Origin: Lachnospiraceae bacterium
Lineage (GTDB): Bacteria; Bacillota; Clostridia; Lachnospirales; Lachnospiraceae
Assembly: GCA_045119215.1 (NCBI GenBank)
Contig: JBGVDD010000098.1
Location: 33,632 to 97,631 of the forward strand
Length of the DNA stretch: 64,000 bases
Direction: 5' to 3'
Part shown: piece after piece, positions 1-6,112 of the stretch
Position numbering within the stretch: position 1 is the first letter of the stretch
Layout: the number at the start of each line of letters is the position of its first letter
Position numbers and translations under genes: made by a program
The notes under the pieces: model-generated
The model's input: the letters and a program-made list of their open reading frames with translations, nothing else
Told to the model about the DNA's origin: nothing
Databases searched by the model: none

Positions 1-177
1 AAAAATATCAGAAATGTATCAGTAGATGTGCTGGTAATTTATCTGGCTTTTTTTGCAGAATGTTCGGTGTTGATAAACTATCGCCAGCCATTGTTCTGGA
101 TGCTGTTTGTCGTAGGACATGAGTTGTTGTACAGATGTGAGCTTGACACTTGCTGTCAAGCTGTGCACCAAGAATGA
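1..177 (+). CDS. possible 3' end of a gene starting upstream of the window (hydrophobic C-terminal fragment, product unknown)
   Basis: Frame +1 is open from base 1 to TGA at 175-177 (..VLVIYLAFFAECSVLINYRQPLFWMLFVVGHELLY..). It is absent from the ORF track because it has no start inside the window. No motif recognised. It competes with the unconvincing antisense ORF 8..196. Confidence 0.25.
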   Translation, partial: KNIRNVSVDVLVIYLAFFAECSVLINYRQPLFWMLFVVGHELLYRCELDTCCQAVHQE

Positions 178-187
178 TATTGTGAGA

Positions 188-420
188 AATTTGCATGCGT
201 AAGCATTGTCCGATTTCGTAACAGTTTAGCCTATGGCTGAACTGTTACTATGAAGATGAGCCAGGTTACGATTCATCATTGACATTTTTTACTCAAAAAT
301 GTACAATTCAAGGTAACTATTCAGTATAGGTCTCAGCATTTACTGCTGAGACCGTGGAAAAATGTAAATTTTACAAAAACGGGGCAATTATGCATGCGTA
401 AGTAGTGCCCCATTTACGCT
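188..420 (-). repeat. composite of one truncated and one near-full copy of a multi-hairpin intergenic repeat family (inverted relative to the copy at 63396-63551)
   Basis: 311-420 aligns by eye with the reverse complement of 63441-63551 (ggtaa..ttcagta.aggtctcagcatttactgctgagaccgt..aaaatgta.attttacaaaaa.cgggcaatt.tgcatgcgtaag..gccc.attt). 188-248 repeats the tgcatgcgtaagcattg.ccgattt module followed by a different hairpin (cgtaacagtt/aactgttac). Hairpin arms: 329-338/344-353 and 381-386/406-411. Confidence 0.8.
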
Positions 421-611
421 AGTACAAGGTATTTCTAAAAGAATTGGAAGAGATAAATAAAGTTTAGAATTTAGAAAAAAAGCAATAATAATATTGATGT
501 AATTTAGGGATTTGAGTAAAAGTCAAAAGCATATCATCAAAGTCATAATTATTTTATATATTGCAATATAGAAAATTAAAGCCTTTGGCGGAAAGGCAGA
601 ATAGGAGCAAA

Positions 612-1901
612 ATGCAATTAAAATTGAGCAATGTTGCAAAAATAAAGGACGCAACGATTAATATTGATGGAATAACAGTTATTGCTGGTGAAAATAATAC
701 TGGTAAAAGTACAATTGGAAAGGTGCTTTATTCTATATTTAATTCAATGAACAATATGGAAGAGAAGATAGCAAAAGAAAAACAAGGTCGAGTAGGCCAT
801 ATTATCTGGCTATTAGTACAAAATTGGTCTATGCAGCATGGGGGGGATACTGCCTCGAGTAAGAAAAATTATAGAAGATGGGCTTTGACACTAACAGAGA
901 AGATAAAAGAGGCTCTGACGGTAGAAAATAATGAAAATATAGAAAAGATTATCAAGCAGTTTACAAAAGAATCGGGATTTGGAAATTCTCAAGGAGAGGA
1001 AGAGGAATTTATAGAAGAATGTGTAATGCAGCTGGAAAGTATTTTAAATATTCCGGATGAAAGAGTAATGATGGAAGTTATTACACGATGGTTTAATAGA
1101 GTATTTGAGAAACAAATTTCACCCTTAATGGAAGAGAATTGTATTTCAGAAATTGAATTGATATTAAAGGATAAATTAGTTCAGTTAAGGTTTAAAAATA
1201 ATACTTGTATAGAGTGTAATTCAGAGGTCAACATTTTGCACAATGCATTTTATATTGATAATCCATTTGTTATTGATTATATGGACCACGGATTTTTTAG
1301 ATCAGAGTTAAAGACGACAGATGAGCATTTGCTAAATTATATTTGTGAAGAGGGGGATATATTTGATAATATTTTTGAGGCTGTGTTGGCAAAAGGTAAA
1401 TTAGAGGAAATAAATGAACTATTGGAAAATATTGTAGGGGGAGATTTTATTGAAAATCAAGAGGGAGGATATTGTCTTGCGTCTCGAAAATTTAGTAAAC
1501 CCATTAATATAAAGAATTTATCTACCGGTTTAAAATCGTTTGCGTTAATAAAAAGACTTTTAGAAAATGGAAGTTTAAAAGAGAAGGATATTTTGATTTT
1601 AGATGAGCCGGAAATACATTTGCACCCAGAGTGGCAATTAGCATATGCTCAGATGATTGTGTTGTTGCAGAAAAAATTTGATTTAACTATGATTATTACT
1701 ACACATAGTCCTTATTTTTTGGATGCCATTGATGTTTTTTCTGCTAAGTATGAAATGTCTGATAAAGTTAATTATTATTTGGCGGAAAGCGTAGAAGAGT
1801 TTTCATATTTGCATAATGTAACAAACAAAATTGATGCTATTTATAAGAAACTATCTGACCCATTACAAAAGTTGGAAAGTATGCGTAGCAGGTTGGTATA
1901 G
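612..1901 (+). CDS. ABC/SMC-like ATPase of the AAA_15/AAA_21 type (predicted defence-type ATPase)
   Basis: ORF 561..1901. Preferred ATG at 612 follows AGGAG (603-607). Walker A GENNTGKST (687-713), signature-like LSTGLKS, Walker B ILILDEPE (1590-1613), H-loop-like ITTHSPYF. About 270 aa are inserted between Walker A and the signature motif. Confidence 0.8.
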   Translation: MQLKLSNVAKIKDATINIDGITVIAGENNTGKSTIGKVLYSIFNSMNNMEEKIAKEKQGRVGHIIWLLVQNWSMQHGGDTASSKKNYRRWALTLTEKIKEALTVENNENIEKIIKQFTKESGFGNSQGEEEEFIEECVMQLESILNIPDERVMMEVITRWFNRVFEKQISPLMEENCISEIELILKDKLVQLRFKNNTCIECNSEVNILHNAFYIDNPFVIDYMDHGFFRSELKTTDEHLLNYICEEGDIFDNIFEAVLAKGKLEEINELLENIVGGDFIENQEGGYCLASRKFSKPINIKNLSTGLKSFALIKRLLENGSLKEKDILILDEPEIHLHPEWQLAYAQMIVLLQKKFDLTMIITTHSPYFLDAIDVFSAKYEMSDKVNYYLAESVEEFSYLHNVTNKIDAIYKKLSDPLQKLESMRSRLV

Positions 1902-1918
1902 ATAAGGGGGGAGAGGAT

Positions 1919-2542
1919 TTGCATATAATAGATGAAAAAAGCAGCACTTTAAAAGATACATCATATGATGAAGACAATAAGGTATATATGGTTGACAGTA
2001 GCCTTGAAGTATGTTCATTTGATGATGTAAAAGAGTGGTATGTGAAAAATAAAATACCTTTAGCAAACCCTAATCCTAAATCTAATGATGCATTGCTTTT
2101 TGATAAAGGGGAGAGCTTTTTTATTGAATTTAAGAATGGAAAGATTAATAATGCGGTAAATTTTGAGATCAATAAGAAAATATACGATAGTTTGCTTATG
2201 CTGTTTGATTTAGGATATGTTGATGAAAATGGGCGAGAGGTTGATTCAATATCTTATACAAGGCAAAACATGAATTACATATTGGTCTATAATTATGAAA
2301 AATATTTAGAAGCCGGACCAACGAGACAAACGAAAGAGGGATTTGAGCGGCAAAGAGTTGAAGTATCATCGTCAAAGCATAGAGATTTATTGTTTTCCAC
2401 TATGAGGAAACTGGCAGATGATGAATTAATTAAGTTTGGTTTAGATCAATTTAAAAATTATCTTTTCAAAGATGTTCATACATATACGGTTGAAGAATTT
2501 CAAGAAAAATTCATAAATGAGCAGTATACTATCAGCATTTAA
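1919..2542 (+). CDS. small protein with PD-(D/E)xK nuclease-like motif
   Basis: Starts 17 nt after the ATPase stop. TTG start follows the purine-rich SD TAAGGGGGGAGAGGA. Motif SNDALLFDKGESFFIEFKNGK gives D57 (2087-2089), E70 (2126-2128) and K72 (2132-2134), with the spacing and hydrophobic strand context of restriction-endonuclease-like folds. Confidence 0.6.
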   Translation: MHIIDEKSSTLKDTSYDEDNKVYMVDSSLEVCSFDDVKEWYVKNKIPLANPNPKSNDALLFDKGESFFIEFKNGKINNAVNFEINKKIYDSLLMLFDLGYVDENGREVDSISYTRQNMNYILVYNYEKYLEAGPTRQTKEGFERQRVEVSSSKHRDLLFSTMRKLADDELIKFGLDQFKNYLFKDVHTYTVEEFQEKFINEQYTISI

Positions 2543-2616
2543 TTTTTCATGAATCTATATATATGAAATTCATAGGTATGAGGTAATAATAAAGCATAAC
2601 GCCCCCAACACAGTCA

Positions 2617-2645
2617 TTGACAATCGTATAGGAATACAGTAAAAT
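2617..2645 (+). promoter_or_regulatory. sigma-A-like promoter (TTGACA-17 nt-TAAAAT)
   Basis: TTGACA at 2617-2622, a 17-nt spacer, TAAAAT at 2640-2645. Lies about 120 nt upstream of the 2763 start codon. Confidence 0.5.
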
Positions 2646-2674
2646 TATTGTACAAGAGAACGGACAAAAGAACG

Positions 2675-2700
2675 AGCACCTGGTAAGGTGCTTTTGTTTT
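2675..2700 (+). terminator. short intrinsic-terminator-like hairpin
   Basis: AGCACC (2675-2680), loop TGGTAA, GGTGCT (2687-2692), then TTTGTTTT. It lies downstream of the ATPase/nuclease pair but also downstream of the promoter-like site at 2617-2645. Confidence 0.45.
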
Positions 2701-2762
2701 GAGAAACGAAAGAGAAGTGGCAAAAATTTACAGGAAGTAGAGTGCAGAGGTAGTGAAATAGA

Positions 2763-3635
2763 ATGAGTGAGAATATGAGAGCGAAATTAAAATGGGTCAT
2801 ACATGGTGTGGTTCTGATAATATCCGTTATTTTTCTTGGGATTGTCTGTGAAAAGGCTTCAAATGCCACCGTAATGGAGACGGGCATACCACAGATTGTT
2901 TGTATTGTTATCACAGCGTTCATAGTGAACATTATAAAGGCTGTCAGAATGTATGTTATTATGTTTGGATATGAATTTTCGATTTGTAAATTCATAAGAT
3001 TTTACATTGTCACAGCGTTTGCCAATATTACCATACCCTTTAAATGCGGTGAACTATACAGAGGGTATTATTTGGGGGATTTACTAGGTTCTTTCTCCGA
3101 AGGATATCTTATGGTTATTTTTGACCGTTTTGTGGATACTTTGGCACTAATTAGTATTGTTATCGGTGTAAATATTTTTCTGGGGACAGATATGGGAGTG
3201 GTTTATCTGTTGCTGTCTGGTTTTTTATTTATTGCGTTGACAGCATATTTACTTTTTCCACCTTTATATAAGTATTGGAATCATTATCTGATATTTAACC
3301 GGAGTTCCAAAAATACTTTGAAGGCATTACATTTTCTGGAAGTATGCCATAAAACCTTTGAAAAAATATCTGGTATTGCCAATGGACGTTTTGTCATGTT
3401 ATATATCATTTCTTTGGCTGCATGGATTGTGGAGATATCCAGTATTCTTATAGTAAACAGTGACGCAAAAAAAAATTATGTAAGTGAATATTTGAAAAAA
3501 ATACTCACCGGTGAAACCACACAATACAATTTTTTCTTTATACTTGGCAGTCTGGTTTTGTTTGCGATTTTGGCAGTAGTTTGTTTGTTTCAAAGAAGGG
3601 AGAAGGGTAAAAATGAAACTAGTAGTTGTATATGA
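2763..3635 (+). CDS. polytopic membrane protein, UPF0104/LPG-synthase-TM flippase-like family
   Basis: Multiple hydrophobic helices. The motif ANITIPFKCGELYRGYYL resembles the conserved P-x-(K/R)-x-GE-x-x-R loop of the UPF0104 family. Confidence 0.6.
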   Translation: MSENMRAKLKWVIHGVVLIISVIFLGIVCEKASNATVMETGIPQIVCIVITAFIVNIIKAVRMYVIMFGYEFSICKFIRFYIVTAFANITIPFKCGELYRGYYLGDLLGSFSEGYLMVIFDRFVDTLALISIVIGVNIFLGTDMGVVYLLLSGFLFIALTAYLLFPPLYKYWNHYLIFNRSSKNTLKALHFLEVCHKTFEKISGIANGRFVMLYIISLAAWIVEISSILIVNSDAKKNYVSEYLKKILTGETTQYNFFFILGSLVLFAILAVVCLFQRREKGKNETSSCI

Positions 3636-5076
3636 TAATTTAATCAAACCAAACGAAATCATTCAGGAAGTCATTGGAAATAAAGGATTTGGAGATGTTG
3701 TTGTCAAAAGAAAGCGCCTGGAAGAATTTTATATGGAAAATCTTAAGACGATTTTTCCGGAACTGAAATGGTATGCTTGTAATAACTTATACGATATCAA
3801 GGGTTTAGAAGAGATGATACGCGCTTACCAGGAGAAAGATGGTGTGCGGGTGTTGCATTGTTTTTCAAACCATATTATTTCGGAACTTGAGAAAGCAAGG
3901 CTGACCTTGGAAAAAGTACACTACATCCATGAAACTGTGAAAATCACAGAGCATCATCGGCCTGTGGGGTTGATGTTTGCAGATGGTAAGGAATATGTAG
4001 AGTTTTTAGCTGAGATTTGTAAGAGGGAAAAGGCAGAACAGATTCTGAAGGAATCCCATTATCCTGCTATTGACATAGAGGGAATGAATTATATTGGCAC
4101 TATAAGCAATTTTATTCAGTGTATTACCGGGAATTTTGACGCACGTTATTTTAATTCTCTCCAGGGGAATGAATATTCTATTCGAAAAGAATCTACGAAT
4201 ATTAAAAAGATAAAAAGTGAGTATACCTACTACCACCTTCTTCCGGACAACATGAAGTGCTGGTTTGTTATGCCCTATGATTATAGGGAAGAAAGGGATA
4301 AATCAAGCTACGAAATGGAGCGGCTTCATATGACAGATATTGCCATTAAATGGGTTCATGGCTCTATTGGCATAGAAGAGTTTGAGGAATTAATGGAAAG
4401 ATATTTTTACTTTTTTGGGATAAGGGGGAAAAAGCCTGTTTCCAGGGAGACATACCAAAGTATCAGCGATAGTCTGTATATAGATAAGGTAAGAGAAAGA
4501 ATTGAACAGTTAAAGGAGCTGTCACAGTTTAAAAAAATTGAAAAACTGTTGTCTAACTGCAAGGAACACAATGATATTGACGAAATTTTCCAGTGGTATT
4601 TAGGGATAAAAGAAAAGGTGGAGAAAAGGGTAAGCTTTAAAACAGAAAGTGTGATAGGTCACGGTGATCCATGTTTTGCCAATGCATTGTACAATAGGTC
4701 TACCAAGACTTTGAAATTTATTGACCCGAAAGGGGCTCTTACCAAAGAGGAGCTTTGGACAAATCCATATTATGATATTGCCAAGTTAAGTCATTCTGTT
4801 TGTGGCCGTTATGATTTTTTTAATAATGCTATGTTTGATATTTCTATTAATGAGGAGTTTGAATATGAACTGAATATTCCCTTTGATAATGAAGAATATA
4901 AAGAAATTTTTAGAGAAAAAGTAGAGGCACATGGATATGATTATTGGACCGTTCGACTGTACGAGGCATCGTTGTTCCTGTCTATGTTGCCATTACATAT
5001 TGATTATCCACATAAAGTGTTTGGCTTTTTGCTAAATGCAATAAATATGCTAAAGGAGATAGAAGAAAATGTTTAG
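3613..5076 (+). CDS. two-domain protein with C-terminal APH/choline-kinase-like phosphotransferase fold
   Basis: RBS GGAGAAGGG. Overlaps the previous gene by 23 nt. Brenner-type motif IGHGDPCFANALYN (Asp codon 4666-4668) followed by FIDPKG, as in aminoglycoside/choline kinase-like enzymes. The N-terminal ~170 aa were not recognised. Confidence 0.6.
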   Translation: MKLVVVYDNLIKPNEIIQEVIGNKGFGDVVVKRKRLEEFYMENLKTIFPELKWYACNNLYDIKGLEEMIRAYQEKDGVRVLHCFSNHIISELEKARLTLEKVHYIHETVKITEHHRPVGLMFADGKEYVEFLAEICKREKAEQILKESHYPAIDIEGMNYIGTISNFIQCITGNFDARYFNSLQGNEYSIRKESTNIKKIKSEYTYYHLLPDNMKCWFVMPYDYREERDKSSYEMERLHMTDIAIKWVHGSIGIEEFEELMERYFYFFGIRGKKPVSRETYQSISDSLYIDKVRERIEQLKELSQFKKIEKLLSNCKEHNDIDEIFQWYLGIKEKVEKRVSFKTESVIGHGDPCFANALYNRSTKTLKFIDPKGALTKEELWTNPYYDIAKLSHSVCGRYDFFNNAMFDISINEEFEYELNIPFDNEEYKEIFREKVEAHGYDYWTVRLYEASLFLSMLPLHIDYPHKVFGFLLNAINMLKEIEENV

Positions 5077-5467
5077 TGAATATACCTTTGTATTTGATAT
5101 TGATGGAACTATTTGTCCTATTAAGAAAAAAGAAGAAAAGTATGAGGATTTGGTTCCATATAGTGAAGTTGTGGAAAAATTACAGTATTATCATGAGAAT
5201 GGTGCAAAGATTGTATTGTTTACTTCAAGAAATATGGCTTCCTACAATGGGAATATTGGATTGATCAACAAAAATACGGCGAAAGTATTAAGCCAGTGGC
5301 TGGAAAAGTGGAATATTCCATATGATGAAATCGTATATGGAAAGCCATGGCCAGGACATAAGGGATTTTATGTAGATGACCGTTCCGTCAGACCGGATGA
5401 ATTTTTGATGAATGACGTGGAAGGTTTGAATAGAATTTGTGAAGAAGCAAGGCAACGACTAAAATAA
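5069..5467 (+). CDS. small HAD-superfamily phosphatase (capsule-biosynthesis-phosphatase-like)
   Basis: Overlaps the previous gene by 8 nt. HAD motif I FVFDIDGT (Asp codons 5096-5098 and 5102-5104), TSR motif II, YGKPW..YVDDR near the C-terminus. At 132 aa it is typical of cap-less mini-HADs. Confidence 0.65.
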   Translation: MFSEYTFVFDIDGTICPIKKKEEKYEDLVPYSEVVEKLQYYHENGAKIVLFTSRNMASYNGNIGLINKNTAKVLSQWLEKWNIPYDEIVYGKPWPGHKGFYVDDRSVRPDEFLMNDVEGLNRICEEARQRLK

Positions 5468-5536
5468 AGCTCACATGCAATGGGGTAAAATATCTAAAAA
5501 GAAGAATACCAGTAACAGTTAGGGAAGGATACAAGG

Positions 5537-6112
5537 ATGAAAGATACACTAAGAAAAATAGGGAAAATAATAGGAGTTTACGCTGGAATATATGTACTTT
5601 GTTCTGTAATATTTGTAGCTTTATTTCATACCTCATTGCTTTCAAAACTACACGTGTTGATGTATCGGGGAATTGTATATTTAGTGTTGGCTGGGATTGT
5701 AGCAGCAGTATGTATGGGGATATGCAGGATGCGATGGAAATCTCTTTTTGATGTGAAAGATATTGTTTTGATGTTTCTGGGATTTTGCTGTGTAAATATG
5801 GTTTTGTTTACTCTTATTCCTGTTACGGTAGAACGTTCTGTATCAGTGTTTACTTTAAGCTATATGATGGAAAATCCGGGAGTGTATACCGTTAGTGATA
5901 TGGAAGATATTTTCCATAAAACTTATGTGTGTGAATTTCAGGCTTTTGATAAAAGGTTTGAAGAACAGATTATTTCAGGAAATGTGGAAGAAAAAGATGG
6001 GGGATATGTATTGACAAAGCGGGGAGAGTTTACAGTAAACTTTTTTCGAACGATATCTTCTTTATTTAACACAGATGAACGACTAATTTATCCAAATGAA
6101 AATACAGAGTAG
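5537..6112 (+). CDS. membrane protein (3-4 TM) with ~80-aa soluble C-terminal domain, function unknown
   Basis: RBS AGGGAAGGA. The N-terminal half is hydrophobic and the C-terminal half is hydrophilic. No motif recognised. Confidence 0.55.
   Translation: MKDTLRKIGKIIGVYAGIYVLCSVIFVALFHTSLLSKLHVLMYRGIVYLVLAGIVAAVCMGICRMRWKSLFDVKDIVLMFLGFCCVNMVLFTLIPVTVERSVSVFTLSYMMENPGVYTVSDMEDIFHKTYVCEFQAFDKRFEEQIISGNVEEKDGGYVLTKRGEFTVNFFRTISSLFNTDERLIYPNENTE

Follow-up and report, generated by a model that had tools for sequence, protein, structure and literature searches.

Introduction

HEC-02 (Hma-embedded candidate 02) is a two-gene system of an ATP-binding cassette (ABC) ATPase and a NERD-like PD-(D/E)xK protein. 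The tested system, from Dickeya dianthicola NCPPB 3534, was shown to protect E. coli from phages, and both genes were needed (Payne, Hughes, Fineran and Jackson, 2024; bioRxiv 10.1101/2024.01.29.577857). WonAB, an ABC ATPase with a variant PD-(D/E)xK nuclease, is encoded on the WASA-1 prophage of Vibrio cholerae (Adams et al., 2025, Nat Microbiol; PMC12137116). It also protects against phages and requires both genes; it acts by abortive infection, in which translation is arrested and the DNA is left intact, and the catalytic lysine of WonB, K71, is essential (PMC12137116). WonB is toxic when overproduced only if active WonA is present, and a simple toxin-antitoxin model was experimentally excluded (PMC12137116). 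Its authors related WonAB to PD-T4-4 of E. coli, which they describe as an ABC ATPase with a PD-(D/E)xK nuclease partner, and to a predicted 'OLD-ABC ATPase + novel REase' (restriction endonuclease, REase) operon of ~1% of genomes, first predicted by Krishnan et al. (2020, as cited in PMC12137116). In this paper we looked at a pair of adjacent genes, gene 1 and gene 2, in a 64,000-nucleotide stretch of a Lachnospiraceae bacterium (assembly GCA_045119215.1, contig JBGVDD010000098.1, positions 33,632 to 97,631; hereafter the window), and asked how it compares with these systems.

Our analysis indicates that the pair is likely to be a two-gene anti-phage (or anti-mobile-element) defence cassette, in which an ABC ATPase would serve as the sensor and a small PD-(D/E)xK protein as the effector. 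The ATPase class of gene 1, the D...ExK core of gene 2, the strict linkage of the two genes and their behaviour as mobile cargo make a defence role the best reading.

The gene pair

Gene 1 and gene 2 are intact and lie on the same strand, with a spacer of 17 nucleotides (1902 to 1918) that was read directly from the sequence. Gene 1 (612 to 1901, forward strand) encodes 429 amino acids; it starts with the ATG at 612, ends with the TAG at 1899 to 1901 and is preceded by an AGGAG at 603 to 607. The program that listed the open reading frames (ORFs) had placed its start earlier, at the TTG at 561; the 429 amino acid form is the called gene in public data (P0121, 100% identical). Gene 2 (1919 to 2542, forward strand) encodes 207 amino acids and the exact protein is present in the public collection (P0508). 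Its TTG start at 1919 is supported by the N-terminal MHIIDE, which is kept in homologues, and a purine-rich Shine-Dalgarno run, AAGGGGGGAGAGG (1904 to 1916, forward strand), lies within the spacer. The initial annotation, which had proposed a candidate defence pair here, had described two same-strand genes of these sizes and spacing together with their main motifs, and all of these were found in the sequence as stated. It had also called this the most accessory-looking part of the window, and the composition agrees: the guanine-cytosine (GC) content of the pair is 0.31, the median of the window is 0.38, and no other 1.9-kb segment of the 64 kb is as poor in GC. Both ORFs and their motifs are far more than chance, since they have hundreds to thousands of homologues in which the gene 2 residues D57, E70 and K72 are invariant or nearly so.

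The ATPase

Gene 1 falls in the SMC/Rad50/PtuA class of ABC ATPases and in the SMC/Rad50/OLD-like branch of the superfamily. It carries a Walker A motif IAGENNTGKST (residues 24 to 34), a signature-like LSTGLKS (303 to 309), a Walker B ILILDEPE (327 to 334) and an H-loop TTHSPYF (363 to 369). Pfam places it in AAA_21 (8.5e-18) and AAA_15 (1.8e-16). Its AlphaFold2 model, built with 43 homologues, has a predicted local distance difference test score (pLDDT) of 84.6 and a predicted template modelling score (pTM) of 0.85, and in Foldseek the model matches Rad50, SMC heads and PtuA (of Septu and of type I-A retrons) at E ~1e-8 with a probability of 1.00. By sequence, the nearest solved structures are PtuA (5e-8) and OLD-family proteins, over the C-terminal lobe only. 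The assignment to ABC ATPases of the AAA_15/AAA_21 type made from the sequence is thus borne out by Pfam, model and structure search, which agree. Walker A and the signature motif are ~270 residues apart, and in the model the region between them contains an insert of five helices (49 to 165, ~120 residues) followed by a beta-rich insert (178 to 215). Among the 43 homologues the residues G26, K32, S33, Q168, S304, G306, D331, E332 and H365 are invariant, and because these catalytic motif residues are retained gene 1 is expected to be an active ATPase.

The predicted nuclease

Gene 2 has no match in Pfam or NCBIfam. The peptide NDALLFDKGESFFIEFK supplies its D57, E70 and K72, in the form N56-D57...E70-F-K72, and is followed by a helix motif K87-I-Y-D90-S-L. 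We found 499 close relatives, and an exhaustive profile search (E 1e-3 or better) extended the family to 1,394 clusters at 50% identity, nearly all of 170 to 220 amino acids. In 108 diverse representatives, with a mean column identity of 27%, S55, D57, E70, F71 and K87 are invariant and K72 is kept in at least 90%; the conservation of D57, E70 and K72 extends to about 33% identity. The AlphaFold2 model of gene 2 (pLDDT 84.2, pTM 0.80) shows D57 at the start of a strand (58 to 61) and E70 and K72 on the next one (66 to 72), followed by a helix (78 to 97) and a further strand (118 to 124). In this confident model the topology is the PD-(D/E)xK arrangement, which in this superfamily places D...(D/E)-x-K on successive strands of an alpha-beta-beta-beta-alpha-beta core, with the predicted catalytic residues on a restriction-endonuclease-type hairpin. 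The top Foldseek lists for this model, all below significance, consist almost entirely of PD-(D/E)xK nucleases: NucS/EndoMS, EcoO109I, OkrAI and HincII, as well as bunyavirus cap-snatching endonucleases, Hjc, RecU, XPF and Cas4. When the family profile was compared to the sequences in the PDB only noise was obtained.

The place of gene 2 in the PD-(D/E)xK fold class is therefore well supported by its motif conservation together with the topology. A restriction-endonuclease-type arrangement without HNH or TOPRIM motifs had already been noted from the letters of the gene; the conserved triad and the REase-type core of the model fit this, and no HNH or TOPRIM model of PADLOC, Pfam or NCBIfam matches. 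From the motifs and the model we infer nuclease activity, and by analogy with the known pairs gene 2 is proposed to be the nuclease effector and gene 1 the sensor or regulator subunit. Beyond the core, the extra C-terminal ~80 residues of gene 2 (126 to 207) have an invariant motif of their own, made of F173, L175, F178, Y181, F183, T188, E193 and F194.

Comparison with known defence systems

The pair was compared with the known defence systems by hidden Markov model (HMM) scans against the 5,027 models of PADLOC-DB v2.0.0. The best models for gene 1 are those of HEC-02A (PDLC04213 at 2.4e-23 and PDLC04214 at 7e-21), the former just ahead of PD-T4-4_A at 9.9e-23; the HEC-02A match is split into two partial stretches, and the order that follows, PD-T4-4_A, AriA, NsnB and PtuA, is a close one. 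An HMM of the gene 1 family gives 48.6 bits for HEC-02A, 46.7, 42.3 and 29.3 bits for WonA proteins and 1.6 bits for HEC-01A, and by BLASTP HEC-02A is 28% identical to gene 1 over the C-terminal 141 amino acids (E 2e-11). Gene 1 is thus related to both HEC-02A and WonA. For gene 2 the only PADLOC matches are to HEC-02B models, and these are weak (8.4e-4 and 0.016); the better of the two, PDLC04226, covers residues 15 to 88 and 68 of the 171 model positions. The 108 relatives behave in the same way, with essentially HEC-02B alone among the 5,027 models (16 matches to five models, best 2.4e-5). In a profile-to-profile comparison by hhalign the gene 2 family reaches a 46-sequence HEC-02B profile at P = 0.0041, over the D...ExK motif and the motif of the next helix; a single HEC-02B sequence against the gene 2 profile is not significant (E 0.067), so the family profile is required.

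As in HEC-02, whose nuclease motif is (D/E/Q)xK, an ABC ATPase gene is followed on the same strand by an adjacent gene for a small PD-(D/E)xK protein. The gene 1 signature STGLKS resembles the AEGLRK of HEC-02A, and both proteins have a RL[LI]xxGxLxE helix before Walker B and a C-terminal hairpin and helix. HEC-02B shares with gene 2 the D-x13-E-x-K spacing and the helix motif, K-V-R-D-T-L against K-I-Y-D-S-L in gene 2 (K-[IV]-x-D-[ST]-L). There are also differences. Gene 1 is 87 residues longer than HEC-02A (429 against 342), with a larger helical insert, and its family has D-[DN]-P-F at the position of the HEC-02A PTRE; gene 2 is 38 residues longer than HEC-02B (207 against 169), its C-terminal region is conserved and distinct, and its family reaches the HEC-02B models only at E-values of 8e-4 to 2e-5 and over ~40% of the model. 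The HEC-02 genes overlap by 4 nucleotides whilst gene 1 and gene 2 are separated by their spacer, and among the loci examined no copy of the pair was seen inside an Hma system. Because its match is weak, gene 2 is best described, on these comparisons, as a divergent relative of HEC-02B and not a clean member. A separate observation concerns the database itself: the model PDLC04146 carries the label HEC-02B, and what it matches is the ATPase gene 1 (7.7e-20, residues 180 to 410) and not the nuclease, so this label in PADLOC-DB v2.0.0 seems to cover an ATPase family.

WonAB has the same general design, an ABC ATPase with a small variant PD-(D/E)xK nuclease; WonAB and copies of the pair are carried by prophages, and WonB has K71 where gene 2 has K72. 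Against an 8-sequence WonB profile the gene 2 family gives P = 0.0054 over the D...ExK motif, the helix and the next strand, and HEC-02B and WonB profiles compared with each other give only P 0.13. A search with the gene 2 family HMM scored HEC-02B at 10.6 bits, the 'Novel REase' at 10.0 (Microcystis) and 9.1 (B. fragilis) and WonB at 7.6 or less, with PIN and TOPRIM controls at about -2 bits. The Microcystis 'Novel REase' has DCVFFDKSDFCFVEFK where gene 2 has DALLFDKGESFFIEFK. This family of Krishnan et al. (2020) was assessed through the tables of PMC12137116, and in the part of its hit tables consulted, which covers complete RefSeq genomes only, the signature peptides of gene 2 are absent. 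The motifs of the ATPases were compared in a MAFFT alignment of gene 1, four distant members of its family, three WonA proteins and HEC-02A, and the result depends on that alignment. WonA differs by its signature SSGQQE and by an essential arginine in a PAGRS Q-loop, against STGLKS and D-[DN]-P-F in the gene 1 family; WonB is shorter (138 to 178 amino acids), has ELKG and has a different N-terminal part. In such motif detail gene 1 appears nearest to HEC-02A rather than to WonA.

PD-T4-4 is alike in its two-gene architecture, and its ATPase model matches gene 1 nearly as well as HEC-02A does; the nuclease is unlike, with no match of PD-T4-4_B to gene 2 (E up to 1) or to the 108 relatives (E up to 1e-3). 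Septu (PtuAB), the PtuA of retron I-A, PARIS (AriAB), Gabija and OLD also couple ABC ATPase sensors to nucleases, and PtuA is the closest solved structure to gene 1 by sequence and among its top Foldseek matches. Yet the effectors of Septu, PARIS, Gabija and OLD are HNH (PtuB) or TOPRIM (AriB, GajA, OLD) proteins, a different fold from that of gene 2, and none of the Septu, PARIS, Gabija or AbiL/RloB-type effector models in PADLOC, Pfam and NCBIfam matches gene 2. The initial annotation could assign the pair to no named system and saw its effector fold as new to such pairs. The second point does not hold, as HEC-02, WonAB and PD-T4-4 are already validated systems with this architecture. On the first, this kind of system has been named, and gene 2 only weakly reaches HEC-02B. 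Judged by these comparisons, the pair probably belongs to the same broad superfamily as HEC-02 and WonAB, as a separate family that is barely touched by existing models.

Linkage, distribution and mobility

When one genome was scanned for each species, 66 loci were obtained, in about 8 phyla. The hosts are Lachnospiraceae and other Clostridia, Negativicutes, Streptococcus, Campylobacter, Treponema, Fusobacterium, Akkermansia, Succinatimonas and Flexilinea. In each of the 62 loci where the sequence reaches far enough upstream, the gene directly before gene 2 on that strand is a homologue of gene 1, and overall the two genes diverge together (Spearman 0.62, p = 4e-7). The nearest neighbours, 107 ORFs, are spread over 173 Pfam families, none of them present in more than four loci, and therefore there is no conserved third gene. 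The initial annotation had tied its proposal to co-occurrence of the two genes elsewhere, which is what the loci show, and to defence islands, for which the enrichment is at best mild: there are a few defence matches, and four integrases, among the 107 ORFs.

Copies of the pair are also found in viral and mobile DNA. Four IMG/VR sequences carry the complete pair, one between a serine integrase and an endolysin (L087), one beside an integrase and a tail gene (L088) and two directly upstream of the terminase and portal genes (L089 and L090); in these the pair occupies prophage moron positions and is carried as cargo. In MT835532.1 (L085), deposited as 'UNVERIFIED Bacteriophage sp.', genes for ParB, a ribbon-helix-helix (RHH) protein and a MobL relaxase lie immediately upstream. 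Taken together, the linkage, the changing neighbours, the prophage and element contexts and the low GC indicate a self-contained cassette that moves horizontally, in agreement with the earlier view of the pair as mobile accessory cargo. In the plasmid collection the pair found no match.

Some of these loci deserve a description of their own. The region around the pair in MT835532.1 also encodes DUF3848, BspA-type leucine-rich repeat and SpoVG-like proteins, and its ParB is of the ParB_N type; it looks like a mobilisable plasmid or integrative element and not a phage. In an Akkermansia sp. (L056) the order is HsdS, a 599 amino acid protein, the pair and HsdR, that is, a type I restriction-modification (R-M) operon, and in a Clostridium (L012) DndH is immediately upstream of the pair. 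The Akkermansia 599 amino acid protein (L056:1865-3661), which has no Pfam match, is a second gene embedded beside the pair in the R-M operon. A general embedding in type I R-M operons was considered and rejected, since PolC, CarB, an SLH protein and the like make up most of the neighbours of 1,000 to 1,700 amino acids; L056 is the sole true HsdS...HsdR embedding and L012 is a DndH adjacency. Neighbour matches to the PADLOC models 'mad3', 'GajB', 'DndA/SspA' and 'C3a214' were likewise not accepted as defence genes; they probably represent ABC transporters, UvrD-type helicases, cysteine desulfurases and GlgB with housekeeping roles. In a Lachnospiraceae metagenome-assembled genome (L016:3754-7536) a 1,261 amino acid HD-CE protein (PF24391, 2.4e-17) is immediately downstream of the pair and may itself belong to a conflict system. 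A further IMG/VR sequence (L091:5977-6285) has a shortened relative of gene 2 on its own, a 102 amino acid ORF of 30% identity with no ATPase upstream, which is probably a decayed copy.

Within the source strain, exact look-ups of two downstream flanking proteins in search of an empty site gave only pair-bearing contigs, where these reach that far, and therefore there is no presence/absence polymorphism among near-identical strains. Several independent assemblies with same-strain metagenome contigs (L074/L079, L080, L073 and L082) break inside gene 1 or gene 2, so that contigs begin with a truncated copy of the pair. Such breaks may reflect strain-level heterogeneity or related copies at the locus.

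Possible function and alternative explanations

How could such a pair work? Based on HEC-02, WonAB, PARIS and Septu, the gene 1 ATPases would dimerise head to head through their Walker A, signature, Walker B and H-loop motifs, and the dimer would hold the gene 2 nuclease in a complex. An infection cue may be sensed by the variable inserts of gene 1, and ATP binding or hydrolysis would then license or release the nuclease. Gene 2 would cut nucleic acid with a D57/E70/K72 metal site, and the cleavage of invader DNA or of host RNA (tRNA or rRNA) would halt the infection, so that either the invader is destroyed or the infected cell is shut down, as reported for WonAB. The complex, the nuclease activity, the trigger and the protection phenotype are all drawn from analogy in this scheme. 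Of the original proposal of a candidate defence pair, the folds, the linkage and the mobility stand as its support, and the defence function itself is probable by the same analogy.

Several points weigh against this reading. The gene 2 model has no significant Foldseek match (best E 0.15 in the PDB and 0.057 in BFVD), and where gene 2 resembles HEC-02B, WonB and the 'Novel REase' proteins, the score does not exceed 10.6 bits and the similarity is confined to the catalytic core. Only one of the 108 family members reaches the Pfam NERD model, at E 0.0049. The position of the essential Q-loop arginine of WonA is occupied by D-[DN]-P-F in the gene 1 family. The co-divergence of the two genes becomes weak once the closest fifth is left out (Spearman 0.27, p = 0.08). 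Most neighbours have housekeeping functions (examples are PolC, CarB, GuaA, transporters, amylases and ribosomal protein S9), and in the source genome envelope and housekeeping genes surround the pair, with no defence island.

One of the other explanations is that the cassette mainly serves the elements that carry it, as an addiction or toxin-antitoxin-like module, or as a weapon against competing plasmids, integrative and conjugative elements and phages; the nuclease would then be the toxin, under the control of the ATPase. The copies beside the MobL relaxase and ParB, the moron positions near integrases, lysis genes and terminases, the low GC and the different site in each genome would all fit such a role, as would the toxicity of the overproduced WonAB nuclease (PMC12137116). 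However, for WonAB the toxin-antitoxin model was excluded and the toxicity needs the active ATPase (PMC12137116), and most copies of the pair are chromosomal, between housekeeping genes and with no recognisable element around them. We consider this explanation unlikely; it also largely overlaps with a defence role, because prophage-borne defence benefits the element too.

The matches of the gene 1 model to Rad50 and SMC heads, together with neighbours that are often PolC, CarB and GuaA, could also suggest a housekeeping module for DNA repair or chromosome maintenance, of the RecF/RecN or SbcCD kind. Against it, the distribution is patchy across phyla with no conserved synteny, prophages and mobile elements carry the pair, and its GC is atypical for the window; there is also no long coiled coil and no Mre11-type partner, and the closest sequence relatives are all defence ATPases. 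The distribution, mobility and composition disfavour this possibility, which we regard as very improbable. A different question is whether gene 2 is an active nuclease at all. It may instead be an adaptor or sensor derived from the restriction-endonuclease fold, with the ATPase or an unlinked partner as the effector, and the absence of a significant structural or profile match to a characterised nuclease, as well as the extra region 126 to 207 with its own invariant motif, are in line with this. But inactivated restriction-endonuclease folds normally lose their catalytic residues, whilst in this very divergent family D57 and E70 are invariant and K72 nearly so, as catalytic constraint predicts, and the equivalent lysine K71 is essential in the analogous WonB (PMC12137116). 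An inactive gene 2 is for us a rather improbable option, and defence by an ATPase and its nuclease partner is the reading that we prefer.

Surrounding genes and non-coding features

In the window the pair is preceded by genes for a 406 amino acid unknown protein and for CotH, and it is followed by genes for LPG_synthase_TM, three unknown proteins, DUF5721, DegV, DHH, ArgG and ArgC. The operon downstream (2763 to 6112) starts with the LPG_synthase_TM-domain membrane protein (290 amino acids), which is followed by proteins of 487, 132 and 191 amino acids with no precomputed Pfam match. It is probably an envelope-modification module. Other genomes do not keep it beside the pair, and so it does not belong to the system.

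The promoters, terminators and palindromes given here are pattern matches only, from a consensus scan and a repeat search. In the scan a candidate sigma-70-type promoter, TTGACA-17-TACAAT (11 of 12 positions), was found at 279 to 307 on the forward strand, ~300 nucleotides upstream of gene 1; the region has 21 promoter-like sites against 15.2 expected, and the enrichment is not strong. A 26-nucleotide palindrome, ATTTTATATATTGC/GCAATATAGAAAAT (551 to 576, no strand assigned, 93% complementary), abuts the ribosome-binding site of gene 1. It is a possible operator, and a chance match in AT-rich sequence is also compatible. The first terminator-like hairpin downstream of gene 2, also from the consensus scan, is bidirectional, with a T-run, and lies at 2674 to 2693 (no strand assigned); it is uncertain whether it belongs to the pair. 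It is preceded by a consensus promoter, TTGACA-17-TAAAAT (2617 to 2645), which probably serves the next operon, and the two together ahead of the gene start at 2763 suggest an attenuator-type leader. An Rfam search of this leader region (2617 to 2762) gave no match.

Repeats are also seen on both sides of the cassette. Two 26-nucleotide inverted repeats (555 to 580 and 2538 to 2563, 73% complementary) bracket it almost exactly, from before the ribosome-binding site of gene 1 to the stop codon of gene 2; they may be scars of an insertion, or else a chance product of the AT-rich DNA. The intergenic region upstream (178 to 611) has a 30-nucleotide direct repeat (187 to 216 and 386 to 415, 80% identical, 199 nucleotides apart), between the copies of which the promoter at 279 to 307 sits, as well as strong hairpins, one at 218 to 231 and 235 to 248 (93% complementary) and one with a stem GGTCTCAGCA...TGCTGAGACC at ~331 to 355. 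Rfam on positions 1 to 3000 gave only a sub-threshold small nucleolar RNA artefact and no family for 178 to 611.

Significance

The design of the pair is already familiar from HEC-02, WonAB and PD-T4-4, and no new mechanistic class is opened by it. What it may represent, as a tentative proposal to which we give somewhat less than even weight, is a distinct, unannotated branch of the superfamily of ABC ATPases with restriction-endonuclease-fold partners, possibly with another trigger and target than HEC-02 and WonAB. A different trigger or target is possible because the ATPase lacks the Q-loop arginine of WonA and the nuclease has an extra conserved C-terminal module. If functional, the pair would stand next to HEC-02 and WonAB as a third branch, well separated from them in sequence. 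Such a branch would help to sort the universal features of these systems (the D...ExK motif, the K-x-x-D-[ST]-L helix and the head motifs of the ATPase) from the modules of specificity (the inserts of the ATPase and the C-terminus of the nuclease).

Neither Pfam nor NCBIfam has a model for the gene 2 family, which numbers at least 1,394 clusters at 50% identity. The PADLOC HMMs capture it only marginally, and it is apparently missed by current detection models; the proteins are at present annotated as 'AAA family ATPase' and 'hypothetical protein'. The family is concentrated in host-associated (gut) anaerobes and their prophages. If the pair is functional, it would add a widespread defence module for Lachnospiraceae, for other gut anaerobes and for their temperate phages, in which the immune repertoires are poorly charted.

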